Assembly: GCA_015066085.1 (NCBI GenBank)
Contig: SVPA01000008.1
Location: forward strand, 448 to 64,447
Length of the DNA stretch: 64,000 nucleotides
DNA from: Oscillospiraceae bacterium
Lineage (GTDB): Bacteria; Bacillota; Clostridia; Oscillospirales; Acutalibacteraceae
Direction: 5' to 3'
Every line of letters starts with the position of its first letter. Position 1 is the first letter of the stretch. A model generated the notes under the pieces. It was given only the letters and a program-made list of their open reading frames with translations, was not told the origin of the DNA and searched no databases. Below are positions 11,090 through 29,319 of this stretch, piece by piece. A program made the position numbers and the translations under genes.

Positions 11090-11722
11090 ATGAGTAACTT
11101 TATAAATATTGCCCTTCCAAAGGGTCGCCTTGGCGAAAAGGTTTATAACCTTTTCGAAAAACTAGGCTATGGTTGCCCCGCGCTACTCGAAAATACCAGA
11201 AAACTCGTTTTCGAAGACGAGCAAAACGGCGTTCGCTACTTTTGGGTAAAACCAAGCGATGTTGCTATCTATGTTGAAACAGGGGTTGCCGATGTAGGGG
11301 TTGTTGGTAAAGATATTTTATTAGAACAAAACCCCGATGTTTACGAACTTTTAGACCTAGGTTTTGGCAAATGCCGTATGGCGGTAGCCGGTAAAAAAGG
11401 CGATATTTTACCGCTCGATAAAACTATTAAGGTTGCCACAAAATTCCCCAACATTGCAAAAAAACATTTTGCTTCTAAAAGCCGCGAAATCGATATTATT
11501 AAACTTAATGGCTCTATCGAACTTGCCCCGATTTTAGGAATGGCCGACGTTATTGTCGATATTGTTGAAACGGGAACAACCCTTAAAGAAAACGATTTAG
11601 ACGTTTACGAAGATATCGTAAATATTAGCGCTCGTTTTATATCGAACAAAACAAGTTTCCGCTTTAAAAACGAAAAAATTGAAGTTATGAAAAGCAGAAT
11701 TGAAAAGGAACTTTTAAAATGA
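11090..11722 (+). CDS. hisG: ATP phosphoribosyltransferase, short form
   Basis: LPKGRL...PSDV..YVE.G.ADVG..GKD and DIVETGTTLKEN motifs. At 210 aa it lacks the C-terminal regulatory domain. Confidence 0.93.
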   Translation: MSNFINIALPKGRLGEKVYNLFEKLGYGCPALLENTRKLVFEDEQNGVRYFWVKPSDVAIYVETGVADVGVVGKDILLEQNPDVYELLDLGFGKCRMAVAGKKGDILPLDKTIKVATKFPNIAKKHFASKSREIDIIKLNGSIELAPILGMADVIVDIVETGTTLKENDLDVYEDIVNISARFISNKTSFRFKNEKIEVMKSRIEKELLK

Positions 11723-12993: not shown

Positions 12994-13007
12994 AAGAGGT
13001 TTTAAAT

Positions 13008-14072
13008 TTGAGTAAGTTTTTAAGTAGTAGGTTTTCCGCTCTAGAGCCCTATACTCCTGGCGAACAACCGCGCGATATGAAATATGTAAAACTTAATACT
13101 AACGAATCGCCCTTTCCGCCTTCTAAAAAGGTTATAAAAGCGGTAAATTCTAGCGAGGTTTTAAAACTTAACCTCTACCCCGACCCTACCGGAAAAGAAC
13201 TAATTTCCAAACTTGCGGCTACATACGGGGTAGGGGAAGAAAACGTTTTTATATCCAACGGTTCCGACGATATTTTAAACTTTTCCTTTATGGCCTTTTG
13301 CGATAAAGAAAAAGGCGTTTGTTTCCCCGAAATCAGTTACGGTTTTTACGAAGTTTACGCTAAACTTTACGGGCTTGATTATAAAAAAATCCCTCTCCGC
13401 AGTGATTTTTCTATAAACCCCGAAAACTATTATTCTTCGGGTAAAACAGTCGTTATAGCCAACCCAAACGCGCCTACAGGTCTTACCCTTTCTGCTACCG
13501 AAATAGAAGAAATACTTAAAACAAACAGCGATAGCGTAGTTATTATCGATGAAGCCTATGTTGATTTTGGCGCAGAATCCTGCGTTCAACTTACAAAACA
13601 GTACGAAAATCTAATCGTTGTTATGACCTACTCTAAATCTCGTAGTTTAGCGGGCGGTCGACTAGGTTTCGCTATTGCTAATAAAAACCTTATTGCCGAC
13701 CTTAATACTATTAAGTATTCTACCAACCCCTATAATATAAACCGCTTAACAATGGCGGCAGGTATTGCCTCATTAGACAGTGCTGACTACTATAAAAAAT
13801 GCAACCAAAATACAATAGAAGTTCGCGAATATACAAAAACTGAACTCGAAAAACGCGGCTTTGTTTTAACCGACTCAAAGGCTAACTTCCTTTTCGCGAA
13901 ACACCCTAAAATCGGGGGCGAAAAATACTATCTTGCCCTTAAATCTAAAGGCGTTTTAGTTCGCCATTTTGGTAGCGAAAAAATTAAAGATTATGTTCGA
14001 ATTACTATTGGAACAAAGGCTCAAATGGACATACTTCTTAAAACTACCGACCAAATTCTCCGCGAGGTGTAA
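13008..14072 (+). CDS. hisC: Histidinol-phosphate aminotransferase
   Basis: Class II aminotransferase with the PLP-lysine motif TYSKSRSLAGGRLGF. TTG start after aagagg. Confidence 0.9.
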   Translation: MSKFLSSRFSALEPYTPGEQPRDMKYVKLNTNESPFPPSKKVIKAVNSSEVLKLNLYPDPTGKELISKLAATYGVGEENVFISNGSDDILNFSFMAFCDKEKGVCFPEISYGFYEVYAKLYGLDYKKIPLRSDFSINPENYYSSGKTVVIANPNAPTGLTLSATEIEEILKTNSDSVVIIDEAYVDFGAESCVQLTKQYENLIVVMTYSKSRSLAGGRLGFAIANKNLIADLNTIKYSTNPYNINRLTMAAGIASLDSADYYKKCNQNTIEVREYTKTELEKRGFVLTDSKANFLFAKHPKIGGEKYYLALKSKGVLVRHFGSEKIKDYVRITIGTKAQMDILLKTTDQILREV

Positions 14073-14074
14073 TT

Positions 14075-14713
14075 ATGAGAATAGCCGAAATTAAAAGAAA
14101 AACTGCCGAAACCGATATAACCTTAACCCTTAATTTAGATGGTGAAGGTAAAAGCGAAATAAATTCGGGCAACGGTTTTATGGACCATATGTTAACCCTT
14201 TTTGCAAAACACGGCCGTTTCGACCTCACCGTTTTATGTAATGGCGATACTAATGTCGACTTTCATCACTCGGCCGAAGATATCGGTATTTGCTTAGGAC
14301 TCGCTTTTAAAGAAGCGCTAGGTGATATGAAGGGAATTTGCCGCTATGGCGATATTATTCTTCCTATGGATGAAACCCTTATTCTCTGCACAGCCGACCT
14401 ATTAAACAATAATATTAAGGATGAAAATGTTATTCTTTGCGCTACCGATATTTCGGGTAGAAGTTATTTAGGTTTAGACCTGCCTCTACCCTCTAGCCGA
14501 GTAGGCGATTTCGATACCGAACTTGTAGAAGAGTTTTTAATTGCCTTTGTAAATAATGCAAAAATTACCCTTCATATAAAGGAACTTGCGGGTAAAAACA
14601 CCCACCACATTATCGAAGGAACCTTTAAGGCTTTAGGTAGAACCCTCTCTAAAGCAGTAGGTATAAACGAAAAATTTAAAAACGATATTCCCTCCACAAA
14701 AGGAGTTCTTTAA
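14075..14713 (+). CDS. hisB: Imidazoleglycerol-phosphate dehydratase (carries a 17-codon internal duplication)
   Basis: RKTAETDI, FMDHML, HHSAEDIGI, DTELVEEF, NTHHIIEG.FKALGR and IPSTKG motifs. It is 212 aa, against about 195 aa as I recall for typical IGPDs. Confidence 0.92.
   Translation: MRIAEIKRKTAETDITLTLNLDGEGKSEINSGNGFMDHMLTLFAKHGRFDLTVLCNGDTNVDFHHSAEDIGICLGLAFKEALGDMKGICRYGDIILPMDETLILCTADLLNNNIKDENVILCATDISGRSYLGLDLPLPSSRVGDFDTELVEEFLIAFVNNAKITLHIKELAGKNTHHIIEGTFKALGRTLSKAVGINEKFKNDIPSTKGVL
14369..14470 (+). repeat. In-frame 2 x 51-nt diverged tandem duplication inside hisB
   Basis: Unit 1 (14369-14419) encodes DETLILCTADLLNNNIK and unit 2 (14420-14470) encodes DENVILCATDISGRSYL. 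At DNA level gatgaaacccttattctctgc aligns with gatgaaaatgttattctttgc. Confidence 0.6.
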
Positions 14714-15330
14714 TGATAGCAATAATTGATTACGGAGTAGGTAACCTTTTTAGTCTTTCCTCCTCCTTTAAAAGTATTGGGGCAAATACTGTTGTTACGG
14801 GCGACCCTGAAGTAATTAAAAAGGCCGAAAAATTAGTTCTCCCCGGTGTTGGCGCGTTTAGTGATGCGGCCGCAAAACTTCGCGAATCAGGGCTCGATAA
14901 GGTTATTATAGAAGAAGTAAAAAACGGCAAACCTTTGCTTGGAATCTGCCTTGGAATGCAAATGCTCTTTACCGAAAGTTTAGAGTACGGAACCCATAAA
15001 GGGCTTGGCCTTATACCGGGTTCGGTAGTTCCTATGAAGGGGGTTGTTCCGGCCGAACTAAAGGTTCCTCACATAGGTTGGAACGGCCTTATTTTCCCCG
15101 AAAACAAGCCTAAAAGTAAAATTTTTAAATACCTGAACCCCGGCGACCATATGTATTTTGTTCATTCTTTTTATGCAACAAATTGCGAAGACTATGTTTC
15201 TTCTAAAACCGAATATGGCGTGCTTCTTACCGCTTCTGCCGAAAACAAAAATGTTTACGGTGTTCAGTTTCATCCTGAAAAAAGCGGTGAAAAAGGCCTA
15301 TTAATACTTAAAGCATTTTGTGAACTATAG
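14713..15330 (+). CDS. hisH: Imidazole glycerol phosphate synthase, glutamine amidotransferase subunit
   Basis: Class I GATase triad context: GICLGMQ and QFHPEKS. Confidence 0.93.
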   Translation: MIAIIDYGVGNLFSLSSSFKSIGANTVVTGDPEVIKKAEKLVLPGVGAFSDAAAKLRESGLDKVIIEEVKNGKPLLGICLGMQMLFTESLEYGTHKGLGLIPGSVVPMKGVVPAELKVPHIGWNGLIFPENKPKSKIFKYLNPGDHMYFVHSFYATNCEDYVSSKTEYGVLLTASAENKNVYGVQFHPEKSGEKGLLILKAFCEL

Positions 15331-15342
15331 AGGATAAGTTTT

Positions 15343-16056
15343 ATGAATATTTTTCCTGCAATCGACCTTTTTAGCGGCAAAGCCGTTCGACTATTTAAGG
15401 GCGATTATAACCAGATGACAATTTATAGCGACGCTCCCGAAAAGGTTGCGCTCTACTTTAAAGAGTGCGGCGCCGAGTATATACATTTAGTAGATTTAGA
15501 GGGCGCTAAATCGGGCGAAACCCCCAACTTTGAAACCATAAAGAAAATTATCGAGGTTTCGGGTCTAAAGGCCGAAATCGGTGGCGGTATTCGTAGCGAA
15601 GAGGTTATCGATAAATATATAAACGCCGGCGCATACCGCGTTATTTTAGGTACTGCGGCCGCTACTAATCCCGAGTTTTTAGAAAAGGCAGTTAAAAAAT
15701 ATGGTGATAAGATTGCCGTTGGTTGCGACCTTTTAAATGGTAAAGTTGCTACAAAGGGTTGGACCGATACTACCAACGAAACGGGCGAAGAATTTTTTGC
15801 TCGCGCCCAAAAACTCGGTATTAAAACGGTTATTTGTACCGACATTAGTCGCGACGGCGCTATGAAAGGCACTAATTTAGAACTTTATAAAAACCTTTCT
15901 GAAAAATTTAGCATTAACATTATCGCATCGGGTGGCGTTACCGATATGTCCGATATTGAAAACCTTAACAAAATGGACATCTACGGAGCCATTTTAGGTA
16001 AAGCCATATACACAGGCAACATTAACCTTAAATCTGCAATAGAGGCTACAAAATAA
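15343..16056 (+). CDS. hisA: ProFAR isomerase (1-(5-phosphoribosyl)-5-[(5-phosphoribosylamino)methylideneamino]imidazole-4-carboxamide isomerase)
   Basis: IFPAIDL..GK.VRL.KGDY, DLEGAK, GGGIRS and SGGV motifs of the HisA (beta/alpha)8 barrel. Confidence 0.93.
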   Translation: MNIFPAIDLFSGKAVRLFKGDYNQMTIYSDAPEKVALYFKECGAEYIHLVDLEGAKSGETPNFETIKKIIEVSGLKAEIGGGIRSEEVIDKYINAGAYRVILGTAAATNPEFLEKAVKKYGDKIAVGCDLLNGKVATKGWTDTTNETGEEFFARAQKLGIKTVICTDISRDGAMKGTNLELYKNLSEKFSINIIASGGVTDMSDIENLNKMDIYGAILGKAIYTGNINLKSAIEATK

Positions 16057-16814
16057 TGATAACTAAAAGAATAATCCCTTGTTTAGATGTAAAAGACGGT
16101 AGGGTAGTAAAGGGCGTAAACTTTCTAGGTTTGGCCGACGTTTCTTCCCCCGTAAAACTTGCCGAGTTTTATAGCCAAAACGGTGCTGATGAACTCGTTT
16201 TTTACGACATTACCGCTTCTAGCGACGGCCGTAAACTCTTTACCGAAATTTTAACCGAAGTTGCTTCTAAAATTTTTATTCCCTTAACCGTTGGTGGCGG
16301 AATAAATACATTAGACGATTTCGATAGGGTGCTTAAGTGCGGTGCCGATAAGGTAAGCGTAAATTCGGGCGCTATTAAAAACCCTAACCTTATTGCCGAG
16401 GCGGCTAAGAAATACGGCGACCAATGTGTTGTTCTTTCGGCCGATATTAAACGAGTAAACGGTAAATTTACCCTTTTTGCAAAGGGGGGCCGAGAAAACA
16501 CCTGTATCGACGCTATCGAATGGATCAAACGCGGTGCCGAAAACGGTGCGGGAGAAATTGTTGTTAACTCTATCGATACCGACGGTGTTAAAAACGGGTT
16601 CGACCTTAATATGTTAGAGGCTGTGTGCAGTGCCGTAAATGTTCCCGTAATCGCTTCGGGCGGCGCCGGTAACATTGACCATTTTAAAACACTATTCAGT
16701 ACCTTACCTAAGGTAGATGCGGGCCTTGCCGCCTCTATTTTCCACTTTGGAGAGGTAAGTATTAAAGACCTTAAAGAAGAACTTTATTTAAACGGAGTAA
16801 ACGTTAGGAGATAG
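16056..16814 (+). CDS. hisF: Imidazole glycerol phosphate synthase cyclase subunit
   Basis: KRIIPCLDVKDGRVVKG, ADELVFYDITAS, VGGGI and ASGGAG motifs. Confidence 0.95.
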   Translation: MITKRIIPCLDVKDGRVVKGVNFLGLADVSSPVKLAEFYSQNGADELVFYDITASSDGRKLFTEILTEVASKIFIPLTVGGGINTLDDFDRVLKCGADKVSVNSGAIKNPNLIAEAAKKYGDQCVVLSADIKRVNGKFTLFAKGGRENTCIDAIEWIKRGAENGAGEIVVNSIDTDGVKNGFDLNMLEAVCSAVNVPVIASGGAGNIDHFKTLFSTLPKVDAGLAASIFHFGEVSIKDLKEELYLNGVNVRR

Positions 16815-16817
16815 TTT

Positions 16818-17468
16818 ATGTTAGATATAAATACCCTTAAATTTGACGAAAAAGGCTTAATTCCTGCAATAGTTGTAGACGCAACTTCTAAAAAGGTTTT
16901 AACCCTTGCCTATATGAATAAAGAAAGTTTAGAAATTTCGATTAAAGAGCAAAAAACCTGTTTCTACTCCCGTTCAAGAAATGAACTTTGGAGAAAGGGC
17001 GAAACCTCGGGCAATTTCCAACATATTGTTAGCATTACTGCCGACTGCGATAACGACGCATTGGTTGTTTTAGTTAATAAAGACGGTCCCGCTTGCCATA
17101 CCGGTACCGACTCTTGCTTTACTAAAACTGTTTTCGAAAGCGATACTAATTCGGTCTTTTCTATGGACACCCTTTATAACCTTTTAGTAGGCCGTAAAAA
17201 TGATAAACCCGAAGGTTCTTATACTACCTACCTTTTCGAAAAGGGAATAGATAAAATTCTTAAAAAGGTAGGCGAAGAATGTACCGAAGTTATTATTGGT
17301 GCTAAATCGGGCGATAAGGCCGAAACGGTTTACGAAATTGCCGACCTCGCTTATCATGTAATGGTTTTAATGGTTGAAATGGGAATTTCTGTAGACGATA
17401 TTAAGGCCGAACTCGCTTCCCGTCATATAATCGACCATAAGGTTAAACAGGAGAAAATGACTAAATGA
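16818..17468 (+). CDS. hisI: Bifunctional phosphoribosyl-AMP cyclohydrolase / phosphoribosyl-ATP pyrophosphatase
   Basis: The N-terminal HisI domain has the SRSR.ELW.KGETSG and DCD.DAL...V...GPACHTG motifs. The C-terminal HisE domain has the KK.GEE..E and E.ADL.YH motifs. Confidence 0.93.
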
Positions 17469-18277
17469 TTTGTGACCTTCACACTCATACAACCTATTGC
17501 GATGGCGCGAATACTCCAAAGGAAATGCTGCTTTCTGCAATAGAAAAAGGCCTTAAAACTTACGGCTTTTCTTCCCATTCGTATTTAAGTTTTGACAGTT
17601 CTTGGAATATGAATGAGAACGAGCAGAAAAAGTATATTGCCGAAATACTCTCTCTTCGTGATAAATATAAAGACCAAATTGATGTTTTGCTCGGCACCGA
17701 GTATGACCTGTTAAGCGAAATAGACCTTACGCCCTTTGATTATGTTATAGGCTCATGTCACGGCTTTTTCAAAGACGGCAACTATATCTCGGTTGACCAT
17801 AGCCAAAAGGTCTTTGAAGAAGTTTTAGAACGTTTTTACGGCGGTGACGCTTACGCCTTTGCAAGTGATTATTTTGAAAAAATGACAACCGCGTCTGACA
17901 AAAAGGAAATAACCTTTTTCGGTCACTTCGACCTTATAAATAAGTTTAATAGGGATTTCAGGTTTTTTGATGAAAATAATATAAGATATAAAAATCCAAT
18001 GCTTTGTGCCCTTGAGAAACTTGCCAAAACAGAAAAGCCTTTTGAACTTAATACTTCTCATACATTCCGCCAAAACGAAAAAGAGGCTTCTGTTTCGGCT
18101 CGCTGTTGGCTGTCTGCCCTTTGTGAAATGGGCGGAAAAATAATCATAAACAGCGACGCCCATAGTACCGACAGAATAGGCTATAACTTTGAGAACGCTA
18201 AAGCATTCGCCAAAGACTGCGGTTTTAAAACTGTCCTTGCTTTAACCGGTAACGGTTTTTGTGAAATTAAACTTTAA
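17465..18277 (+). CDS. hisK: Histidinol-phosphatase, PHP family (HisJ/HisK type)
   Basis: PHP-domain N-terminus [12 protein letters not shown], plus later H/D ligands (SSHS, GHFD, NSDAH). 4-nt overlap with hisIE, at the end of the his operon. Confidence 0.8.
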
Positions 18278-18282
18278 CAAAA

Positions 18283-18321
18283 AAACTTCCTAAACCTTAA
18301 AAGTTTAGGAAGTTTTTTGTT
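18283..18321. terminator. Bidirectional rho-independent terminator between the convergent his operon and ACP gene
   Basis: Stem aaacttcctaaac / gtttaggaagttt, flanked by an A-run on the left and a T-run on the right. Confidence 0.8.
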
Positions 18322-18324: not shown

Positions 18325-18546
18325 TTATATTCTGCTTTCAAGATATCCGCAGACATCGCCAACCGTTTCAAAATAAACAAATTCGGTAAACTTAAAACCA
18401 AATGCATCCTCAATCTCCATTGAAAGCATCATAAGAGCGAGCGAGTCAAAACCAAGGTCCTCAATAAGACGGGTATCTTCCGTAATAGTTGAAAGGTCAA
18501 TATCAGGGAGTATGTTTGCGAGCAATTCTTTTAACTGTTCAAGCAT
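18325..18546 (-). CDS. Acyl carrier protein, specialised (non-housekeeping-like)
   Basis: 73 aa. The phosphopantetheine attachment motif is LGFDSLALMML (Ser in DSL). GGAGAA RBS inside the 3' end of the upstream gene. The start lies 2 nt after the stop of the GNAT-like gene. Confidence 0.8.
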   Translation of the reverse strand: MLEQLKELLANILPDIDLSTITEDTRLIEDLGFDSLALMMLSMEIEDAFGFKFTEFVYFETVGDVCGYLESRI

Positions 18547-18548
18547 AT

Positions 18549-19673
18549 TTATTCTCCAATCTTTTTAATATAAGAGCGTCTGCGTTTGTGCTGACGGGCA
18601 GAAAAATATTTCCACTGCGACTGAACCGCCGTGTTTGTTTCAAGGTTAAGGTTTGTTTCACAGGATAAAATCTTGCCCTCTTCAAGAACATCAAGCAGCG
18701 TGTCCACAATAACCGCATTAACCCCTGAATTCTGATATTTGGGTCTAACGGCTACAAGACCCAAGTCGAGTACTTTTGGATTTTTAACAATCTTTAAAAG
18801 TCTTAAAAGAGCAAAAGGGGTGAGCCTTCCTCCGCTTTTTTTAAAAGCGTCCCCAATTGCAGGGAAACAAAGACCAAGCGCTACAACATCATCATTTTCG
18901 TCACAAATAAAAATAACATACTTTTTGTTTATGATTAACATAAACTGGCCGATAAGTTCGTCTTGAGCCTCTTTTGAAATAGGAACCGTTCCGTAAAGAT
19001 GACGGTAACATTCATCAATGCAGTCAAAAAAACCGTCTCGGTATTTGTTTATGTACTTTCTCTTAGATAAATTAGTATCTGCAAGATGAAGTTTGTTAAG
19101 TTCAAGGCTTCGGTTTGCAACCTTTTTTAACATAAGGTTTCGGTTCTCCGGCTTTTTAAGTTCATATTCAAGCCAGTCAACGTCCTTCTTTAAACCGGCA
19201 CCCTCTAAAAGTCTGCCGTAATATTCGAAGTTGTACTGCTCTTCAAAGGTTGAGTTTTCGCTAAACCCCTCAACAAGCAGTCCCTCTCGGTCAAGGTCGC
19301 TAAATCCAAGCGGACCGCAGATTTCGGTCATGTTGTTTTCTGTTCCCCAGTTTTCAACCGCCGAAATTAAGGCCGAGGCTACCTCTTGGTCGTCTACACA
19401 GTCAAATCTTGTAAAACGCACTTGCGAAACCTTGTGAATACTATTAAACTGGTGCTGAATGATTCCGTGAATTCTTCCGACAGTATTCCCGTCCCTTTCA
19501 GCAAGAAAGAAAACCGAAGAAGAATCATTTGAATTTCCGCCCGATTTAAGAAGTTTCTTTTCGTCACTATAAAGAGGAGGAACAAAATAGGGGCAATTTT
19601 TATAAAGTCTTAAAGGAAACTCAATAAATTCTTTAATATCGTGCCGATTTTTAACCTCTCTTATTTCTACCAT
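18549..19673 (-). CDS. Uncharacterised two-lobed GNAT-like (acyltransferase-fold) protein, 374 aa
   Basis: I trimmed the start to the ATG at 19673 (MVEIREVKNRHDIKEFIEFPLRLYKNCPYFVPPL), which follows GGAGGA and lies 1 nt after the degV stop. The remaining ORF-track N-terminus overlaps degV. The C-terminal part (LGLVAVRPKYQNSGVNAVI) resembles an acetyl/acyl-CoA-binding GNAT motif A. GPLGFSDLDREGLLVEGF is another motif that looks conserved to me, from recollection of similar sequences. Confidence 0.55.
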   Translation of the reverse strand: MVEIREVKNRHDIKEFIEFPLRLYKNCPYFVPPLYSDEKKLLKSGGNSNDSSSVFFLAERDGNTVGRIHGIIQHQFNSIHKVSQVRFTRFDCVDDQEVASALISAVENWGTENNMTEICGPLGFSDLDREGLLVEGFSENSTFEEQYNFEYYGRLLEGAGLKKDVDWLEYELKKPENRNLMLKKVANRSLELNKLHLADTNLSKRKYINKYRDGFFDCIDECYRHLYGTVPISKEAQDELIGQFMLIINKKYVIFICDENDDVVALGLCFPAIGDAFKKSGGRLTPFALLRLLKIVKNPKVLDLGLVAVRPKYQNSGVNAVIVDTLLDVLEEGKILSCETNLNLETNTAVQSQWKYFSARQHKRRRSYIKKIGE

Positions 19674-19674
19674 A

Positions 19675-20577
19675 TCAGTCCTCCAACGGCTCGTCTTCTC
19701 TGCGAAGAAACGCAAGACCGTACCCCGCAAGCCAAGGTCCGTTATGACAACCGCTGACAGGGGACATAATAACTGCTTCGTGGTTGGTTTCAATACCGAA
19801 TTTACCCTCAATATCTTTAAGTGTAGTTATAAGGGACGGTCCTGTATATATGTGCCAAAGCAGATAATCTTTCGGGTCACGGTCGCCTATGATTTCTTTA
19901 AGAATTTCACAGGTTCTTGCAAGGGCTTTCTTTTGTGTGCGAACGCTTTCAAGGGCAACACACTCTCCGTCCTTGTTGAAGTGGACAACAGGGCAAATAT
20001 TAAGCATTTGTCCCATAAAAGCCTTTCCGCCTTTAAGTCTTCCGTTGTAAATAAGATAATCAAGTTTTCCGTCAATGCCCATAAATACCTGACGCTTCAT
20101 CATCCACTTAATTTCTTTTAAGATTTCCTCGCTTGACATACCCTTGTCAGCAAATTCTTTTGCCTTAATCGCAAGCAAACCTTCACCGAAACAAGTGATT
20201 TTTGTATCAATTACATTAATTTTAAGACGGTCTTCATATTCCTTTGCAATAAGGCAAATTTTGTTGTATGTGCCGCCAAGTGCCGACGAAATTGCAAAAA
20301 CCATTGCCTCGTCATAACCTTCTGCAATTGCGTTTTCAAAACAATCCTGAATATCTTTTGTGTCTGGCATACCCGTGTGGGGAAGATTGTTTTTTGGGTT
20401 CTCAATGGTTTCAAGTTTTTCGTAAAAATCTACAGGGTCAAGGTCGAGTCCCTCTTTATATTCTTTTCCCTCAAAGAATATATGAACTCTTATAATGTCA
20501 ATACCAAGGTTTCTGTAGCGTTCAGGTGCATATTCTATACAGCCTGTTGATGTGCACATAATTTTAATTTTAGACAT
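19675..20577 (-). CDS. DegV family fatty-acid-binding protein (FakB-like)
   Basis: DegV-family length (300 aa) and pattern (I.....STG......Y..LGIDI...H; SS.LGGTY; P..G.H.GP). RBS gagagg. Confidence 0.85.
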   Translation of the reverse strand: MSKIKIMCTSTGCIEYAPERYRNLGIDIIRVHIFFEGKEYKEGLDLDPVDFYEKLETIENPKNNLPHTGMPDTKDIQDCFENAIAEGYDEAMVFAISSALGGTYNKICLIAKEYEDRLKINVIDTKITCFGEGLLAIKAKEFADKGMSSEEILKEIKWMMKRQVFMGIDGKLDYLIYNGRLKGGKAFMGQMLNICPVVHFNKDGECVALESVRTQKKALARTCEILKEIIGDRDPKDYLLWHIYTGPSLITTLKDIEGKFGIETNHEAVIMSPVSGCHNGPWLAGYGLAFLRREDEPLED

Positions 20578-20591
20578 TATTTTTACCTCTC

Positions 20592-21581
20592 TTAAATTGT
20601 ATTTTTTGCGGTGTCGAAAATCTCTTTGTTTTGAGCAATATTAAGAAACATTTGAGAAATCGAGGTAATAACCTTTTCGCCCGAATTACCCCTTGCTTTT
20701 ATAACGGGTTTTTTAAGACCTAAAATATTTCCTCCGCCAAGAGAACCGATATCATAAACACTCATAAGGTGGTTAGCAAGGGCTAAAACCTCGTTTGAAC
20801 CTTCTCTTTTTGCGTATTTTACAATATCCGTAATAATTCTTGTAGCCGTGCCTTCGGTAACCTTAAATACTTGATTTCCGGCAAAACCGTCGCAAACAAG
20901 AACGTCGCATTCGCCGGAGAGAGCACGGTTGCCCTCAATGTTTCCAATAAAGCAAAGTCGCTCGTCTTCGGCTAAAATGGGGAAGGTTTCTTTAACCAAA
21001 GCGTTTCCCTTTGAAGCCTCTGCCCCGTTAGATAAGAGGGCAACCTTTGGGTTTTCTATGCGATAGGTATCACGCATAAATTCGGAACCGAGCAGTGCAA
21101 AATGATGCAACATTTCGGGGGTACAGTCGATAGTAGCGCCTGTGTCAACAAGGCAGGTGAATGACCCGTCTTGACAGGGGAGAACCGCCGACAAACAAGG
21201 TCTTACCCTTCTTTCTTTCGAGAGATGTCGCATACCTCCCGCAAGAAGAACTCCTGTATTTCCCGCCGAAATCATTCCGAAAAGGTCGTCCCTTTCAGAA
21301 AGGGCTTTAAGGGCAACAAGCATTGAAGAGTTGGGCTTTTTGAAAATTGCGTCTCCCGGCTTGTCAAAATTTGTAACCTCGTCTTTAGCGTCTAAAATTT
21401 CAACTCTATCCATCGGCATATCAAGTTTACTGCATTCTTCGGCGATAAACTCTTCGTCGCCAACAAGAACAAAAGCAATATCGGGTAGTTTTTTAAGGGC
21501 AAGAGCGGCCCCACTAATAAAAACCGAAGGTCCGTTATCAGAACCCTTTGTATCTATTACAACTTTAATAGGACTAATCAT
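20592..21581 (-). CDS. plsX: Phosphate acyltransferase PlsX (acyl-ACP:phosphate transacylase), divergent N-terminus
   Basis: SAGNTGVLLAG, VDTGATIDC, LLSNGAE..KGN, DVLVCDGFAGNQ and KARGNS motifs. The N-terminal motif reads VIDTKGSDNGP, where Bacillus-type PlsX has AVDAMGGD.AP. RBS aggagg. Confidence 0.85.
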   Translation of the reverse strand: MISPIKVVIDTKGSDNGPSVFISGAALALKKLPDIAFVLVGDEEFIAEECSKLDMPMDRVEILDAKDEVTNFDKPGDAIFKKPNSSMLVALKALSERDDLFGMISAGNTGVLLAGGMRHLSKERRVRPCLSAVLPCQDGSFTCLVDTGATIDCTPEMLHHFALLGSEFMRDTYRIENPKVALLSNGAEASKGNALVKETFPILAEDERLCFIGNIEGNRALSGECDVLVCDGFAGNQVFKVTEGTATRIITDIVKYAKREGSNEVLALANHLMSVYDIGSLGGGNILGLKKPVIKARGNSGEKVITSISQMFLNIAQNKEIFDTAKNTI

Positions 21582-21599
21582 AATTACCTCCTAAATTAC

Positions 21600-23267
21600 T
21601 TACTCAATAGCAACAAAGTAGTCATAAAGCGGTTGACCGCCCTCATATACCGTAACTTCGCAGTCGGGATAATTTTCACTAATGGCGTTTGTCAAAGCAA
21701 CACGCCTTTCGGCAGAAACATCTTTACCGCAAAAAAGAGTAATGATTTCGCAAAAATCCGTGTCAGATTTTTCAAGGAGTTCAAGTAAAGCATCTTCAGC
21801 AGTCTTCGCTACGGCAGAAATTTTGCCCCCGCTTATTGCCATAAAATCGCCTTTCTTTATTGATACACCGTCAATATTAGCGTCTCTTACCGCTTTAGTA
21901 ATTTCTCCGTCTATAACGCTGTTTGCTGCCCGTGTTGCGCTCTGTTTGATAGACTCAGTGTTGGTAATACCCGGAGTGATTACCGAAAGAGCGCTGAACC
22001 CTTGCATAAGATTCTTGGTCTCAATAATATGAACCTTTGCCTCACTAAAAAGTTCAGCCGACTGTTTTGCGGCAAGAAGAATGTTTTTATTGTTAGGAAG
22101 AACAATTATATTATCGCTGTTACACTTTTTAAATGCGTCAATAAATTCTCTTGTAGAGGGGTTAGCCGTCTGACCACCCTCGATAATAATATCTGCCCCC
22201 ATATCAGTAAAAAGGGAAGACATACCCTCTCCGTTTGCTACCGCAACGACACAAAAAGGTTTTTTATCGGCGGTTTTAGTTTTTTCTTCGCCCGAATGGC
22301 TTACTGACATGTTTTCAATTTTTACGGTAAGAAATTCGCCGAAAGACTGAACTTTAGAAAGAATATCGCCGGGCGTAAAGGTGTGAACATGAACCTTAAC
22401 AATATCATCCTGCTTGTATGCGACAATGCTTTCCCCGCCGAGTTCGTTTAGCATATCAAGAACTCTGCTAACCTCAAAATTGTCGGGGTCAACCTTGTCG
22501 GTGGTTAGCCTTAAAAGGAACTCGGTACAGTAGCCGAATTCAAGTTTGCTATCCCTTGTAAACGAGTCAATGTTTACCTGTGCGGTTTCGTTTTTATCTA
22601 TAGTAGAAGAATATTCCGGAATCTCTTCGCCCGTTAAAACCGAAAGCATTCCTTCGGCAACGCAAAGATAACCCGCCGCCCCCGAGTCTACAACATCTGC
22701 CTGTGCAAGCACGGGTAGAATTTCTTTTGTCTGCTCAAGAGAGCGACGTGCCTGTTCAACGTGACTTTTAAAGAAATCTTCAAAAGAGGAGTTGTCACTG
22801 AGTAGGGAAGAAGCGTATTCCGTGCTTTCTCTGAAAACTGTAAGAATAGTTCCTTCGGTTGGGTTTTGAACAGCAGAGTAGGATTTTTGAATACCGCTTT
22901 GGTATGCCTTTGCGAATTCGTTTACTCTTACAAAACCATAATCTTTAAGACCTTCGTTTATTCCGGCAAAAATCTGCGAAAGAATAACTCCCGAATTACC
23001 TCTTGCGGAAAGAAGAACGCCTTTTGCAAAGTTTTTGGAAATTTCGCTTATGTTGTCGGTTTCACTACTTAAGGTCTTAATACCGCCGTCAAAGGTTTTT
23101 GCCATATTAGTTCCGGTATCTCCATCAGGAACTGGAAAAACATTAAGTTGATTAAGCCTTTCAATATTTGCCGCAAGTCTTGAAGCACCGCCAATAAGCA
23201 TTTTTGCAAACAAAACGCCGTCAAGCGTTTGTGTGCTTTTGGTATCACGCTCACAGTCTTTATTCAT
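21600..23267 (-). CDS. fakA: Fatty acid kinase catalytic subunit (DAK2/DhaL domain protein, YloV/FakA family)
   Basis: DhaL motifs FPVPDGDTGTNM and ARGNSGVILSQ. At 555 aa, with a C-terminal FakA-type domain. RBS ggagag. Confidence 0.85.
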   Translation of the reverse strand: MNKDCERDTKSTQTLDGVLFAKMLIGGASRLAANIERLNQLNVFPVPDGDTGTNMAKTFDGGIKTLSSETDNISEISKNFAKGVLLSARGNSGVILSQIFAGINEGLKDYGFVRVNEFAKAYQSGIQKSYSAVQNPTEGTILTVFRESTEYASSLLSDNSSFEDFFKSHVEQARRSLEQTKEILPVLAQADVVDSGAAGYLCVAEGMLSVLTGEEIPEYSSTIDKNETAQVNIDSFTRDSKLEFGYCTEFLLRLTTDKVDPDNFEVSRVLDMLNELGGESIVAYKQDDIVKVHVHTFTPGDILSKVQSFGEFLTVKIENMSVSHSGEEKTKTADKKPFCVVAVANGEGMSSLFTDMGADIIIEGGQTANPSTREFIDAFKKCNSDNIIVLPNNKNILLAAKQSAELFSEAKVHIIETKNLMQGFSALSVITPGITNTESIKQSATRAANSVIDGEITKAVRDANIDGVSIKKGDFMAISGGKISAVAKTAEDALLELLEKSDTDFCEIITLFCGKDVSAERRVALTNAISENYPDCEVTVYEGGQPLYDYFVAIE

Positions 23268-23348
23268 ATCAGTCTCTCCTCAAACTAAAAATGAAAGTTT
23301 ATCTACTAAAATTTAACATAAAAACCTAAACTGAAAAGAAACTTTGTC

Positions 23349-23392
23349 GAAAAAAGTAAAAGAGAGTCGGAATTTGTTATTCCGACTCTCTT
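23349..23392 (-). terminator. Rho-independent terminator after the histidine kinase gene
   Basis: Stem agagagtcggaat / attccgactctct, followed on the minus strand by TTTACTTTTTTC. It separates the two-component operon from the fakA operon. Confidence 0.8.
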
Positions 23393-23396
23393 TGTA

Positions 23397-24479
23397 TTAT
23401 TGTGTCTTTGGAAGAAAAACGGTAAATTCGGTTACTGAGTTTGATGATTCAACCGAAATTTCTCCGCCGTGAAGTTCAATAATCTTTTTAACAATAGCAA
23501 GTCCTATGCCGTTTCCCTCGCTGCTATGCGAGGTATCGGCTTGATAGAATTTGTTAAATATCTTTTTAAGTTCATCGTCTTCAATGTAACTTCCGCTGTT
23601 TATAACCGAAACCGAAAGAAGATTTTCTTTTTCAATTATTTTAATTTCAACCTGTGCACCGTTTGGTGAAAATTTAATAGCGTTGTCGATAAGATTTATC
23701 CAAATCTGTTTTAAAAGTTCTTCGTTTGCCTCAATTTCAACCTCTCCAACATCAAGGTTAAGTATAGTGTTTTTCTTAACCCACTTGTTTTCAAGCAGTA
23801 ATACCGCCCCTCTGATTTGTTCGGATAGATTAAACTTTGAAACATCGGTAAGAATCAACTGATTTTCAACCTTTGTAAGATTAAGAACATTATTTGCCAT
23901 TTCGGCAAGTCTTAGTGACTCTTCTTCAATAATATCGATATATTCGCTTTTTTGTTCTTCGGTAAGATTTCCCCGCTTAATAAGTTTTGCAAAACCCGCA
24001 ATAGAAACAATAGGAGTTTTGAATTCGTGCGAGAAGTTATTGATAAAATCAGTCCTGAGCATCTCAACCCCTTCAAGTTCCTCTGCCATCGTATTAAAAC
24101 TGTCAATAACATCTTTTACTGCAGGGTGGGAGTCCATTCTCTTGCCAAATTGAACTCTTGCCTTGTAGTCTCCTGCGGCAAGTCGGTTAATCTGACCAAT
24201 TAGAACGGTAAAAGGTTTAAGCGGATATTTAACCGTTAAAAAAGCAACCGAAAAACCAATAACCAAACTGCTTATTGCCATAAATATTAGAAGTTCCGTA
24301 AGGTCGGGCATACTTGGAAGACCAAAATCAATCCAGCCAACCGAAGAAAAAACATAGGCAAGAATTGTTGCAATTACAATAGAAATTGCTTGAATAATAA
24401 AGATTGCCAAGGAAAAATAAACGGTCATTGAAAGGCGGAGTTTTCTGGAGGATTTGGGTTTAAGGTTTATTATTTTCAT
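23397..24479 (-). CDS. Sensor histidine kinase (two TM segments, HAMP, HisKA, HATPase_c)
   Basis: H-box FSHEFKTPI, N-box LIDNAIKFS, G-box GNGIGLAIVKKI. 4-nt overlap with the response regulator gene. Confidence 0.9.
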   Translation of the reverse strand: MKIINLKPKSSRKLRLSMTVYFSLAIFIIQAISIVIATILAYVFSSVGWIDFGLPSMPDLTELLIFMAISSLVIGFSVAFLTVKYPLKPFTVLIGQINRLAAGDYKARVQFGKRMDSHPAVKDVIDSFNTMAEELEGVEMLRTDFINNFSHEFKTPIVSIAGFAKLIKRGNLTEEQKSEYIDIIEEESLRLAEMANNVLNLTKVENQLILTDVSKFNLSEQIRGAVLLLENKWVKKNTILNLDVGEVEIEANEELLKQIWINLIDNAIKFSPNGAQVEIKIIEKENLLSVSVINSGSYIEDDELKKIFNKFYQADTSHSSEGNGIGLAIVKKIIELHGGEISVESSNSVTEFTVFLPKTQ

Positions 24480-25150
24480 ATTTTCTTTACCGCCTTATAG
24501 CCCAGTCCGCGAACAGATTCAATTGAAAACTCCTCAAAATGTTCAAACCTTTTGCGAAGTCTGCCTATATGCACTGTAACCGTTTCCCAACCCGTGTTAC
24601 TGTCTGCCCCCCAAATTTCGTCCATAAGTTGAATTCTGGTAAATATTTTTCCGGGGTAGGATAGAAGTTTATATAAAAGCAAAAACTCTTTTTGCGGAAG
24701 TTCCTGAACCTCGCTGCCTCTTGATACTGTAAGGGTATCAAAGTCAATAACAACCTCGCCAACAACAATTTTGCGTTCGTTGGCAATTCTGGCTCTGCGA
24801 AGAAGCGCCTTAATACGAAGCAGGAGTTCGTCCTGGTCAATCGGCTTGGTCATATAATCGTCTGTTCCTACTAAAAAGCCTTGCTTTTTGTCGTCGGGTT
24901 GCTGTTTTGCCGAAACCATAAGTATAGGCAAAAACTCATCCGACTTGCGAAGTGTTTTTGTTAACTCGTATCCGTCCATTTTCGGCATCATAATATCGAG
25001 AACGACCAAATCAATGTGTTCTTTGTCAATTACCTCAAGAGCCAAAATGCCGTTTTCTGCGGTAAATACAGTATATTTTTCATTTTCAAGAACAGCCTTT
25101 ATTAGTGTTCGGGTGTTTCTGTCATCTTCAACAACAAGAATATTGAACAT
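24476..25150 (-). CDS. OmpR/PhoB-family response regulator
   Basis: Receiver domain (ILVVEDD, DLVVLDIMMPKMDG, SAK) plus a winged-helix trans_reg_C domain (LL..P.K.F.R..L......G.......TV.VHI.RLRKK). Confidence 0.92.
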   Translation of the reverse strand: MFNILVVEDDRNTRTLIKAVLENEKYTVFTAENGILALEVIDKEHIDLVVLDIMMPKMDGYELTKTLRKSDEFLPILMVSAKQQPDDKKQGFLVGTDDYMTKPIDQDELLLRIKALLRRARIANERKIVVGEVVIDFDTLTVSRGSEVQELPQKEFLLLYKLLSYPGKIFTRIQLMDEIWGADSNTGWETVTVHIGRLRKRFEHFEEFSIESVRGLGYKAVKKI

Positions 25151-25190: not shown

Positions 25191-25847
25191 TCACTTTCGC
25201 TTTGAAAGGGCAAGTATATAGCGGTAAAGACAAACAAGACCCGTGCCAAGAAGAACACCGACTACAATATCGGAAAACCAATGAACTCCCGAAATAAATC
25301 TTCCAACAACCATAAAAACTGTGAATATAAGGGTTAAGACTACTGTAAATCTCTTCAAAAAAATGTTTTTTATTCGGGTTTTAAACTGCATTAAAGCGGT
25401 AGGCATAATTGATAAAACAAGCAGAGTTGTTGAGGATGGATACGACGCCTCCAAAACCCCGTCTATTAGTGTTGGTCTGTGGTTCACAATAACTGTATCA
25501 AAGAATAAATACAATGCAACCGTAATAATGTACAATCCACCAAGGACGAGAATGCTGTAATCAACCTTTAAAATGCTTTTCCTTTTTATCATCTGATAAA
25601 GACCTAATAATCCAAAACAAAAGGCAACAAACAGCAGAACAATTGAAAGCAGGTCGGTAATATAATAAAGTCCCCAATTTACGCCTGTAAGCCTAAAAAC
25701 AAAACCGTTAAGTGCTGAAAAACCAACCATTGACCCGCCCGGCCCAATGGGTTCGGTGTCAACGGTGCTGATAAGCACTGTCCAAACCGCAAAACCTAAA
25801 AGCAAAGCAACCGGTAAAATCAACCCTTTTTTATTCGTTTTTTTCAA
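25191..25847 (-). CDS. PAP2-superfamily membrane phosphatase (lipid/undecaprenyl-PP phosphatase-like)
   Basis: Multi-TM protein with PAP2-like motifs VNHRP, SYPSSTT and GRFISGVHWFSD. TTG start after agggagg. First gene of the PAP2-RR-HK operon. Confidence 0.7.
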   Translation of the reverse strand: MKKTNKKGLILPVALLLGFAVWTVLISTVDTEPIGPGGSMVGFSALNGFVFRLTGVNWGLYYITDLLSIVLLFVAFCFGLLGLYQMIKRKSILKVDYSILVLGGLYIITVALYLFFDTVIVNHRPTLIDGVLEASYPSSTTLLVLSIMPTALMQFKTRIKNIFLKRFTVVLTLIFTVFMVVGRFISGVHWFSDIVVGVLLGTGLVCLYRYILALSKRK

Positions 25848-27344: not shown

Positions 27345-27440
27345 ACCCTCACGGGTTCGACTCCCAATTTTCAGTCAAAACAACAAAACACCCCACTCTT
27401 TCGAGTGAGGCGCTTTGTTATTTGGTGGAGGCGAGGGGAG
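27345..27440 (-). repeat. Proximal copy of the same unit (unit 2), whose 21-mer is the genuine tmRNA 3' end
   Basis: Same order of elements as unit 1: a T-arm-like 22-mer, an A/T-rich spacer, a terminator hairpin, then atttggtggaggcgaggggag. It is offset by about 206-209 nt from unit 1. Confidence 0.8.
27377..27410 (-). terminator. Rho-independent terminator of ssrA
   Basis: Minus strand reads cctcactc gaaa gagtgggg followed by TGTTTTGTTGTTTT, starting 12 nt after the CCA end. Confidence 0.75.
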
Positions 27441-27769
27441 TCGAACCCCTGTCCGAAAGCCAATCCCAATCAGCATCTCCGAGCGCAGACGGTCATTAAC
27501 ATTCCCTTACACAAAAGCAGGCCGTCACGCTTTTGTGCTTAGTAGCCGAAACTGCATGACAAGGCTATCGGCATTACCTTGTTCACGTTCACCGCTAATC
27601 GACGCCCTCGCCGGTCCGCGGTATTACCGGGTCGGACGGCTGCTTAATTAAGCAGCAAGAGCAACTTTAGAGTTGTTGTTTAATTTTATAATTTGCGGCT
27701 TTTAAAGAGGTACCGCACCTCTGCTCGCTTCCAATTGTTCAAAGCCCCCGTCGAAACCTTTACGCCCCC
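27423..27769 (-). ncRNA. ssrA: Transfer-messenger RNA (tmRNA)
   Basis: The 5' end GGGGGCGTAAAGGTTTCGACGGGG pairs with the 3' end CGCCTCCACCA, giving a G3:U wobble in the acceptor stem. T-arm GGGGTTCGACTCCCC and encoded CCA are present. The internal tag frame ends ...AAC AAC AAC TCT AAA GTT GCT CTT GCT GCT TAA (NNNSKVALAA-stop). It lies 9 nt downstream of smpB. I could not assign the resume codon. Confidence 0.92.
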
Positions 27770-27777: not shown

Positions 27778-28242
27778 TTAGCGATTTTGTTCTTTTAGTG
27801 CACGCTGCATATCTCGGTTTGCAGATTTTTCGGCGGCAACTGCGCGCTTGTCATATAGTTTTTTACCCTTGCAAAGTCCAAGTTGAACCTTAACAAGAGA
27901 GCCCTTAAAGTAAAGAGATAACGGAACAAGAGCAAGACCTTGCTGTTTTACTAAACCAAAAAGTCTCATAATTTCTTTTTTGTGAAGAAGAAGTCTTCTT
28001 ACTCTCATAGGGTCTTTGTTAAAAATATTCCCGTGTTCATAAGGAGATATGTGCATCTGTTTAATGAACATCTGACCGTCATCAACACTGCACCAAGCAT
28101 CTTTCAGATTAACGCCTCCTTGACGGATAGACTTAATTTCAGTTCCGGTAAGTTCAATTCCTGCCTCAAAACTTTCAATAACAAAATACTCATGGTAAGC
28201 ATTTTTGTTAGTAGTAATCGTTTTTGTGTTCTCCATCTGCAC
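27778..28242 (-). CDS. smpB: SsrA-binding protein
   Basis: N.KA.H.Y.....[21 protein letters not shown] and LVPL.LYFK....K..LGL.KGKK motifs. Confidence 0.95.
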
Positions 28243-28824: not shown

Positions 28825-29319
28825 TTAGTCTCCTTTCTTTAATCTTTTTACTATATCGTTATGGATTGCGTGGGGAACAAAGTCCGTGATGTCTCCGCCC
28901 ATACTTGCAATCTGTTTTACCATGCTTGAACTTAAATACATATTCTCAGCACTGGTTGTGAGAAATATAGTTTCGACATCAGGATTAAGTTTTTTATTGG
29001 TAAGCGCCATCTGGAATTCATATTCAAAGTCTGTAACAGCGCGTAAACCCTTAACAATAACATCGGCGTTTTTATTAGCGGCATAGTTTGCAAGCAAGCC
29101 GTCAAAATGGTCAACTTCAACGTTCTCAATATGAGATACCGACTTCTTTATCATTTCGACCCGCTCGTCAATGGTAAAACAGCCACTATTCTTATGAACA
29201 TTAGACATTACCACAACAATGACCTTATTGAACATTTTTGCGCCTCTTGAAATAATATCAAGATGACCAAGCGTTATAGGGTCAAAACTGCCGGGGTAAA
29301 TAGCAACAGTATTTTTCAT
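28825..29319 (-). CDS. coaD: Phosphopantetheine adenylyltransferase
   Basis: YPGSFDPITLGHLDI nucleotidyltransferase motif, 164 aa. Confidence 0.95.
   Translation of the reverse strand: MKNTVAIYPGSFDPITLGHLDIISRGAKMFNKVIVVVMSNVHKNSGCFTIDERVEMIKKSVSHIENVEVDHFDGLLANYAANKNADVIVKGLRAVTDFEYEFQMALTNKKLNPDVETIFLTTSAENMYLSSSMVKQIASMGGDITDFVPHAIHNDIVKRLKKGD

Follow-up and report, generated by a model that had tools for sequence, protein, structure and literature searches.

Two of the described systems closest to the locus analysed here supply its background. In the FakA/FakB-PlsX pathway of Firmicutes such as S. aureus and Streptococcus, FakA, a DegV/FakB protein and PlsX convert a fatty acid to acyl-phosphate and then to acyl-ACP. 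The other is the proteobacterial sphingolipid cluster, in which a specialised ACP and a dedicated activating enzyme steer free fatty acids into the pathway (PMC9386255). CC_1154, the bacterial ceramide synthase of Caulobacter, is an N-acyltransferase of long-chain bases required for dihydroceramide synthesis, and yghO (ECD_02850) of E. coli has been listed as its orthologue (PMC9386255). In E. coli strains whose locus is intact, the neighbours of yghO were found to encode a fatty acyl-AMP ligase, an NAD-epimerase, an ACP, Spt and LptFG.

Here we analysed a 64-kb stretch of DNA (the window) from a gut bacterium of the Oscillospiraceae (Clostridia) that carries an operon of fakA, plsX, degV, a tandem-GNAT gene and an ACP gene. 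The original prediction had placed five packed minus-strand genes within 18325-23267, and all five open reading frames were found at the same coordinates. The gaps from fakA to the ACP gene, 18, 14, 1 and 2 nt, were confirmed by direct reading of the sequence, as was a ribosome binding site of the GGAG, GGAGG or GAGAGG type before each of the five starts. The intrinsic terminators said to bracket the set (23349-23392 and 18283-18321) were recovered as hairpins a few bases off. One of them, a minus-strand hairpin at 23359-23393 with a 15-bp stem (6 GC pairs) and a following T-run, lies directly 3' of the histidine-kinase gene upstream of fakA. This terminator-like element closes the preceding two-component operon and sets the 5' limit of the five-gene unit. 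The other, at 18280-18318, has a 16-bp stem with A-runs and T-runs at its flanks and lies between the ACP gene and a convergent PHP-family gene ending at 18277; it resembles a bidirectional terminator common to both.

The first gene, fakA (21600-23267, 555 aa, GAGGAG ribosome binding site at 23276-23281), encodes a fatty acid kinase catalytic subunit of the YloV type. The protein has the Pfam domains PF02734 (Dak2), PF21645 (FakA_M) and PF13684 (FakA_C), and scored 554.6 bits against TIGR03599 (cutoff 396). The degV gene (19675-20577, 300 aa) encodes a FakB-type fatty-acid-binding protein that matches PF02645 and TIGR00762, aligns with DegV/FakB structures and keeps the LPxT, ISSxxxGT, GRL and HxG motifs. 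It was the best conserved gene of the operon, with 68-87% identity across loci.

The plsX gene (20592-21581, 329 aa) encodes a divergent phosphate acyltransferase, an enzyme that interconverts acyl-phosphate and acyl-ACP. It scored 235 bits against PF02504 and 234.8 bits against TIGR00182, slightly below the cutoff of 243.4, and its best PDB matches were the PlsX structures 1u7n, 1vi1 and 6a1k. The diverged N-terminal motif noted in the original prediction is real, with DTKGSDNGP in place of the canonical DxxGGDxxP. In addition, the window copy and those of loci L002 and L017 carry Arg where the conserved K-x-H-G motif has its His. The ACP (18325-18546, 73 aa) had likewise been judged unlike a housekeeping AcpP, and the scores agree with this. 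It gave 41.9 bits against PF00550 and missed the cutoffs of all NCBIfam ACP models (about 65-146 bits), the best being 42 bits against 71. The phosphopantetheine serine is present in DSL, helix II is unusual and hydrophobic (DSLALMMLSMEIEDAF), two residues of AcpP are missing, and the protein has a pI of 4.05. By sequence comparison, the PlsX and ACP of the window clearly belong to a separate, divergent lineage.

The remaining gene (18549-19673, 374 aa) encodes a predicted N-acyltransferase. Its mechanical open reading frame opens at TTG 19811, inside degV; we took ATG 19673 as the start because a ribosome binding site is present (GGAGG at 19680-19684) and the homologues all begin M-[VI]-x-I. 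This start lies 1 nt past the degV stop. Pfam gave only a weak match to PF00583 (E 2.9e-5, residues 247-340). The protein had originally been presented as the unexplained component of the operon, a description that no longer holds: hhalign aligned it over its full length to E. coli YghO (probability 100%, E 1.9e-49, 363 columns), and we assign it on this basis to the YghO/bCerS (bacterial ceramide synthase) family. With phmmer, YghO matched the copy of locus L001, which is 96% identical to the window protein, at E 6e-32, and all 45 locus copies at E 1e-19 to 2e-50. With only about 25% identity to YghO, the protein may differ from it in substrate specificity. The two lobes predicted earlier were seen as a tandem fold in a confident AlphaFold model (pLDDT 94.6), whose top Foldseek matches in the PDB were tandem GNATs. 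The pyrophosphate/pantetheine-binding motif A (Q-x-x-G-x-N/A) is kept, as YQNSGVNA in the C-lobe. No membrane segment was predicted in the model; a conserved C-terminal basic stretch, QHKRRRSYIKK, might aid binding to the membrane surface. The families first proposed for comparison with the protein, NMT, FemX, OlsB and PF13444, were rejected by the Pfam and Foldseek comparison, and PF13444 had no sequence match in the window GNAT or in any of 72 family members.

A census of gene neighbourhoods was positive for the linkage, which is conserved across genomes and phyla. The degV gene was found directly upstream of the GNAT gene in 29 of 43 related loci, and fakA lay upstream in 19 of 30. An adjacent plsX was seen in 18 loci, as was an adjacent ACP gene. 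In all-against-all clustering, no neighbour family other than FakA, DegV and PlsX recurred in more than five loci; the clustering omitted open reading frames below 80 aa, so the linkage of ACP was counted on its own. The complete order of five genes was seen again in other Clostridia and in three MAGs of spirochaetes. Since the combination recurs in dozens of genomes, it is far beyond chance. Its composition varies: Lachnospiraceae loci have the GNAT gene between fakA-degV and a canonical, apparently housekeeping plsX/acpP pair, and Christensenellaceae loci have fakA-degV(-degV)-GNAT without plsX or ACP, so a dedicated ACP is not essential to the GNAT. None of the more distant homologues (at most 42% identity; Bacteroidales, Anaerolineae, Marinimicrobia and Acholeplasma) shared an operon with fakA or plsX, and a weak DegV match lay near just two of them (adjacent in L036, about 2 kb downstream in L040).

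Taken together, we consider it somewhat probable that the operon is a self-contained module sending free (exogenous) fatty acid into an N-acylated lipid. FakA would phosphorylate a fatty acid held by the FakB-type DegV, and the divergent PlsX would shift the acyl group from the acyl-phosphate to the specialised ACP of the operon. The tandem GNAT could then move the acyl chain off the thioester and onto the amino group of an acceptor that would be made or imported elsewhere than by the operon; no spt, cerR or other acceptor-making gene was linked in any of the 46 loci or in the 64-kb window. Analogy with the bCerS enzymes points to a long-chain amino alcohol or other lipid-like amine as acceptor. 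Which way the flux runs, the use of acyl-ACP as donor, the N-acylation of a lipid-like amine and the identity of the product are all inferred. As the GNAT is homologous to a known lipid N-acyltransferase, an N-acyl lipid made from scavenged fatty acid is a reasonable reading. The idea of an acyl-ACP-dependent N-acyltransferase acting on scavenged fatty acids is thus partly supported, by linkage, fold and bCerS homology; the orphan status of the protein is not, nor is membership in the families proposed for comparison.

A possible, though less likely, explanation is that the operon serves housekeeping in a fatty-acid-dependent organism, as the cell's sole means of turning external fatty acid into acyl-phosphate for PlsY and into acyl-ACP for PlsC. 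The divergence would then reflect relaxed constraint after loss of FASII, and the GNAT would be a mere side branch of phospholipid metabolism; the two explanations overlap partly, since an N-acyl lipid could still be the product of the GNAT. FakA is a normal YloV-type protein, the GC content of the operon (0.41) matches that of the window (0.40), and the surroundings are core chromosomal genes (his, ilv/leu, tmRNA/smpB, gap, ligA, secDF), with no fab genes within the 64 kb. In Eubacterium ruminantium and similar loci the GNAT gene lies beside fakA-degV, among a canonical plsX (344-354 bits against the cutoff of 243) and a canonical acpP (74-91 bits against 70). However, the window PlsX was no nearer to a canonical copy from an Oscillospiraceae MAG (38% identity) than to those of Lachnospiraceae (34-37%), and window-type PlsX was 54-56% identical to that of the spirochaete operon. 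This pattern fits a separate lineage whose genes move together in one operon; it does not fit vertical descent of housekeeping genes. The ACPs also make up a sharply distinct subfamily, conserved across phyla, with 53-54% identity to the spirochaete MAG copies against 32-36% to canonical Clostridial ones; for DegV the values were 68-70% and 24-26%. Window-type PlsX, DegV and ACP thus constitute a distinct lineage that accompanies the GNAT. The spirochaete copies, if the MAGs are correctly binned, were presumably transferred into genomes already making lipids.

DegV, not ACP, is the most constant partner of the GNAT, so the donor may be something else than acyl-ACP. The GNAT might draw the acyl group directly from acyl-phosphate held by DegV/FakB, with PlsX and ACP serving the phospholipid branch only. 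Such a role would suit the immediate adjacency of degV, the stronger conservation of operon-type DegV between phyla in comparison to FakA (44-48%), and the Christensenellaceae loci with two degV genes and neither plsX nor ACP. It is nevertheless improbable, as thioester donors are known for GNATs including the bCerS family, motif A is kept, the ACP gene begins only 2 nt past the GNAT stop, and we know of no acyl-phosphate-dependent GNAT. Least probable in our view is an acetyl-CoA-dependent acetyltransferase that modifies FakA, DegV, ACP or a small amine and regulates fatty-acid uptake, building no lipid. The generic acetyltransferase family PF00583 is all that Pfam finds, and Eis, MshD, glucosamine N-acetyltransferase and VipF are among the structural neighbours. 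The closest characterised relatives, CC_1154 and YghO, are however long-chain N-acyltransferases of a lipid pathway, and a shared substrate accounts more readily for the persistent linkage to genes of fatty-acid activation. YghO was also on the strain list of E. coli GNATs overexpressed in a lysine acetyltransferase screen, and reportedly was not among the enzymes found positive.

In comparison to the Firmicute Fak-PlsX pathway, the locus has FakA, DegV/FakB and PlsX, each with the domains and motifs expected of it, but encodes them together with a GNAT and an atypical ACP in a single operon. The PlsX is below its equivalog cutoff and has lost the K-x-H-G His, and FakA and DegV score far under the S. 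aureus equivalog cutoffs. The N-acyl amino acid synthases and OlsB/GlsB (PF13444), with the Clostridial fatty-acid-amide pathway, share the proposed outcome, an amide-linked acyl chain in gut bacteria, but the PF13444 enzymes are single-domain GNAT-like proteins, whereas the window GNAT is tandem. The bCerS systems differ in their hosts, window-type operons being found in Clostridia and spirochaetes, neither of which is, to our knowledge, known for sphingolipid production. They differ also in spt/cerR, absent from the operon, the window and every related locus, and in activation, which relies on the acyl-AMP-ligase-type AasR in Proteobacteria and on FakA/FakB and PlsX here. In Proteobacteria the specialised acyl-ACP feeds Spt, while in this operon the GNAT is the only candidate consumer. 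The likeness lies in full-length homology to CC_1154 (CCNA_01212) and YghO, proteins of about 375-390 aa, in a soluble tandem-GNAT fold without a transmembrane segment, in a family chemistry of N-acylation of a lipid amine, and in a gene cluster where a specialised ACP occurs together with dedicated machinery that activates free fatty acids. The logic would parallel that of the proteobacterial cluster, in which AasR and AcpR direct free fatty acids into the pathway containing YghO/CC_1154, with a Firmicute-style Fak and PlsX probably taking the activating role. Fatty-acid salvage machinery joined to a relative of bacterial ceramide synthase suggests an undescribed route to an N-acylated lipid.

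The 374-aa tandem-GNAT protein (18549-19673, minus strand), which the original prediction had left as the unexplained member of the operon, was found to belong to the YghO/bCerS family. The GNAT family profile (A3) and E. coli YghO aligned over their full length (hhalign probability 100%, E 1.9e-49, 363 columns, about 25% identity), and phmmer with YghO matched all 45 locus copies at E values from 1e-19 to 2e-50. This homology was measured against YghO, and the link to the Caulobacter ceramide synthase CC_1154 (CerS/bCerS) is made through the orthology of YghO and CC_1154 taken from PMC9386255 and through synteny. That paper gives 'aca: CC_1154, yghO ECD_02850' as the acyl-CoA N-acyltransferase genes needed for dihydroceramide synthesis. 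Based on this listing and on the homology to YghO, the window GNAT belongs, judged by its sequence, to the bacterial ceramide synthase family as a distant member.

The intact yghO locus of other E. coli strains (L048, strain 2011C_3361, 1-10103) has yghO adjoining genes for a fatty acyl-AMP ligase, an NAD-dependent epimerase, an ACP and serine palmitoyltransferase (spt), and also carries a second lptF/lptG pair. At the E. coli K-12 locus (L047, 11044-13341) yghO abuts IS5, and the sphingolipid-type cluster next to it is missing; the RefSeq name of the K-12 gene is still 'putative DNA-binding transcriptional regulator YghO'. Homologues of Spt or of the ceramide reductase CerR were found neither in the 46 loci with a GNAT homologue from our genome-collection census nor in the 64-kb window. 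According to the literature, Spt and CerR-type genes are also unlinked in Bacteroidota. The Bacteroidales homologues of the GNAT (36-39% identical; Dysgonomonadaceae, Parabacteroides, Tannerella) are named only 'hypothetical' or 'GNAT', and the homologue search did not prove a link between them and the proposed Bacteroides CerS BF9343_4218.

The fold of the protein was predicted with AlphaFold from 72 diverse members (pLDDT 94.6, pTM 0.90). Foldseek against the PDB placed tandem GNATs at the top, with TM scores of just 0.5-0.6 (2wpw, 7q3a and 5kf1; clavulanate-pathway tandem GNAT, MAB_4324, glucosamine N-acetyltransferase, MshD and Eis). The description as a two-lobed GNAT is therefore correct, and the model predicts a soluble polypeptide with two GNAT lobes, of the type of about 375-390 aa. 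Pfam gave a weak generic GNAT signal alone, in the C-terminal half, and NCBIfam nothing useful. Among solved structures no close relative was found by sequence or profile, the hits being generic single-domain ones at E 4.5e-4 or weaker. The four families against which a comparison had been proposed were all negative: PF13444 and OlsB/GlsB matched neither the window protein nor any of the 72 members at E <= 0.01, FemX and MprF-C had no Pfam hits, with FemA, FemX and L-PGS just at Foldseek ranks 43-47 (TM 0.35-0.45 in either normalisation), and NMT was absent from the Foldseek top 50 and from the Pfam hits. The family is very large, with more than 6,000 proteins scored in one search and, among representatives of 50%-identity clusters, at least 385 at E <= 1e-30 and 4,356 at E <= 1e-3. 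Its members are annotated merely as 'GNAT family' or 'hypothetical', and neither Pfam nor NCBIfam has a dedicated model for the family.

The five minus-strand genes of the operon (18325-23267) were recovered by the ORF listing exactly where they had been placed: fakA at 21600-23267, plsX at 20592-21581, degV at 19675-20577, the GNAT gene, and the ACP gene at 18325-18546. Direct reading of the strand confirmed the gaps of 18, 14, 1 and 2 nt and the ribosome-binding site claimed for each gene (GAGGAG, AGGAGG, GAGAGG, GGAGG and GGAG precede the five starts). The mechanical ORF of the GNAT gene starts with a TTG at 19811, within degV; 374 aa is taken as the correct length because the ATG at 19673 has a ribosome-binding site and agrees with the N-termini of all homologues. 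Terminator-like hairpins were found at both ends of the operon, as anticipated, one on the minus strand at 23393-23359 after the upstream histidine-kinase gene, and one at 18280-18318 that is common to the ACP gene side and the convergent PHP-family gene. A sigma-70 consensus scan of the 90-nt leader (23268-23358) gave no promoter match. The natural reading is that the five genes would form one transcript.

Beyond the upstream hairpin, on the same strand, lie genes for a histidine kinase (23397-24479), an OmpR-type response regulator (24476-25150) and a PAP2-family membrane phosphatase (25191-25847). Together they could form an envelope- or lipid-related sensory unit, and their pairing with the operon was not kept in the other loci. 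The plus strand holds long biosynthetic gene runs at 226-18277, with an ilv/leu cluster (ketol-acid reductoisomerase, dihydroxy-acid dehydratase, a LeuA-like protein, an aconitase-family protein and isopropylmalate dehydrogenase) followed by a his operon, whose last gene is the PHP-family gene (17465-18277) convergent on the ACP gene. ARAGORN detected a tmRNA at 27423-27769 on the minus strand, next to smpB (27778-28242, minus strand). Its tag peptide, ANYKIKQQL*, is without the usual hydrophobic ending of the LAA type and may reflect a mis-set resume codon or be an unusual tag. The phosphopantetheine adenylyltransferase gene coaD (28825-29319, minus strand) is about 9 kb from the operon, and in locus L044 the unlinked Bacteroidales homologue of the GNAT is followed two genes further on by another coaD (13005-13472, plus strand); this closeness is probably a coincidence. 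The window also contains a YunB sporulation gene (41898-42596), which suggests that the host is a spore-former.

The partner proteins were assigned with domain and family searches. FakA has the complete Dak2, FakA_M and FakA_C architecture and passes TIGR03599 (554.6 bits against a cutoff of 396), but misses the S. aureus equivalog NF038248 (451 against 975). DegV passes both PF02645 (188 bits) and TIGR00762 (199.5 bits), and when aligned to the solved DegV/FakB structures 3lup and 3fys it retains LPxT, ISSxxxGT, GRL and HxG, the Thr, Ser, Arg and His motifs that bind the ligand in FakB structures. PlsX clearly exceeds the PF02504 cutoff (235 bits against 29), has PlsX structures as its best PDB matches and falls just short of the TIGR00182 equivalog (234.8 bits against 243.4); it belongs to a divergent subgroup of the PlsX family. 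Its diverged motif had been rightly noticed, with DTKGSDNGP replacing DxxGGDxxP, and an Arg stands in place of the His in K-x-H-G. The ACP has the generic PP-binding family match and the DSL serine, with a pI of 4.05. The impression that the carrier does not look like a housekeeping AcpP held up: it reached at best 42 bits with the NCBIfam ACP models, where the cutoff is 71; helix II (DSLALMMLSM; DSLALMMLSMEIEDAF) is hydrophobic where AcpP has the acidic DSLDxVELV; and 2 residues are deleted by comparison with AcpP. In comparison, the AcpP proteins of Eubacterium ruminantium ATCC 17233 (L026) and of a Hadza-gut Clostridia MAG (L030) pass the NCBIfam cutoff with 74-91 bits, and the canonical PlsX neighbours in these loci score 344-354 bits against TIGR00182.

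A census of the neighbours of GNAT homologues, which the original prediction had proposed, was positive. One scan of a species-representative genome collection gave the 46 loci, whose ORFs were searched with the five window proteins. Of the 43 loci with enough upstream sequence, 29 had DegV immediately before the GNAT; FakA lay no further than 4.5 kb upstream in 19 of 30, PlsX was adjacent in 18 loci and an ACP gene was downstream in 18 of 43. All-against-all clustering of the neighbours gave no further family in more than 5 loci (ACP linkage was scored separately since ORFs under 80 aa were excluded here), and the rare lineage-specific families were unrelated housekeeping genes, such as ruvCAB-queA-tgt-yajC downstream of the GNAT in Christensenellaceae and parE-like, coaD and peptidase genes in Bacteroidales. 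No conserved acceptor-making neighbour was found in the census loci.

Three arrangements were seen. Type I, fakA-plsX-degV-GNAT-ACP, occurs in the window and in Oscillospirales-like Clostridia (L001-L012, L017 and L029, several of which are short contigs with part of the set only), and L013-L015, from three spirochaete MAGs independent of one another, have it too. Type II, fakA-degV-GNAT-plsX-(HAD)-acpP, occurs in E. ruminantium ATCC 17233 and related loci, and its plsX and acpP are the canonical ones (344-354 and 74-91 bits). Type III, fakA-degV(-degV)-GNAT without plsX or ACP, is that of Christensenellaceae. Homologues at or below 42% identity (Bacteroidales, Anaerolineae, Marinimicrobia, Acholeplasma) had no operon linkage to fakA or plsX, and a weak DegV match was found near two of them (adjacent in L036, about 2 kb downstream in L040). 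One Christensenella MAG (L033, 8833-11125) has two tandem GNAT copies, and the Hadza-gut Clostridia MAG CAKVPH01 (L025, L030) carries a copy linked to fakA-degV-plsX-acpP besides an unlinked one. The operon-type DegV is the best conserved gene of the set (68-87% identity between the window gene and those of L001-L024). It has CTSTGC at the N-terminus, where canonical DegV proteins have a D-S-T/A motif, and may represent a subfamily of FakB proteins dedicated to the GNAT branch.

The set could also be housekeeping, belonging to a fatty-acid-dependent organism whose sole PlsX and ACP have drifted. We consider this possible, if unlikely. The GC content of the operon equals that of the window (0.41 and 0.40), its surroundings in the 64-kb window are core genes, and the GNAT could under this explanation still make an N-acyl lipid. 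Against it, sequence comparison sets the type I PlsX, DegV and ACP apart as a separate lineage. The spirochaete operons were closer in identity to the window than the type II Clostridial loci were for FakA (44-48% versus 38-41%), PlsX (54-56% versus 34-37%), DegV (68-70% versus 24-26%), the GNAT (59% versus 49-50%) and ACP (53-54% versus 32-36%), a pattern that fits a module moving as a unit and not a vertical housekeeping set. The canonical-type PlsX of another Oscillospiraceae MAG (L031) is only 38% identical to that of the window. The spirochaete contigs, from MAGs labelled Sphaerochaetaceae, Spirochaetaceae and Spirochaetales, have a GC content of 0.50-0.53 versus 0.40 in the window and carry the whole five-gene operon, its proteins being 44-70% identical to those of the Clostridial copy. 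Provided that these 6-14 kb contigs are correctly binned, the module as a whole may have been transferred across phyla.

FakA and FakB convert fatty acid to acyl-phosphate, and PlsX interconverts acyl-phosphate and acyl-ACP. In the operon, FakA with the FakB-type DegV would produce the acyl-phosphate, PlsX would exchange it with acyl-ACP, and the tandem GNAT would, by family precedent, N-acylate a lipid amine from a thioester donor. Acyl-ACP is favoured as this donor because motif A is retained and the ACP gene is spaced by 2 nt. There is a striking parallel in Proteobacteria, where a dedicated acyl-ACP synthetase (AasR) and the specialised carrier AcpR channel free fatty acids into the sphingolipid pathway; by analogy, Fak and PlsX with a specialised ACP would take this part in the operon. 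Direct hand-off of DegV-bound acyl-phosphate to the GNAT is an unlikely but conceivable alternative, suggested by how constantly DegV adjoins the GNAT and how very strongly it is conserved, and a purely regulatory acetyltransferase role for the GNAT is the least supported explanation. Extending the acyl-ACP route, gut and rumen Clostridia and some spirochaetes might use a Fak-PlsX-ACP-fed ceramide-synthase homologue to make N-acyl or ceramide-like lipids wholly from scavenged blocks, i.e. diet- or host-derived fatty acids together with a salvaged sphingoid base or other amine; taken jointly, this is a speculative proposal that we hold to be improbable.

All parts of the operon are of known families, and the proposed chemistry is that of a known enzyme family. 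Literature searches on FakA- or DegV-linked GNATs, Fak with ceramide, and tandem GNATs with ACP gave no paper describing the gene combination, and a bCerS-family enzyme joined to Fak/PlsX/ACP salvage in Clostridia and spirochaetes without Spt was in none of the papers searched. To our knowledge, the only role described for the Fak/PlsX system is to feed phospholipid synthesis, the bCerS family has been described only together with Spt in de novo sphingolipid synthesis, and neither gut and rumen Clostridia nor the spirochaetes concerned count as producers of sphingolipids or aminolipids. Ceramides and N-acyl amides of this kind are potent signalling molecules in the host. That anaerobes abundant in gut and rumen carry a conserved operon joining Fak to a bCerS-family enzyme points to a salvage route by which fatty acids from the diet or the host end up in amide-linked lipids. 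If the all-scavenged proposal were true, it would mean a class of bioactive lipids from the microbiota that has not been seen before, and the first N-acylation pathway that depends on Fak. The operon is a testable five-gene set with a cultured carrier available, E. ruminantium ATCC 17233, and through it a function could be assigned to a protein family of thousands of members.
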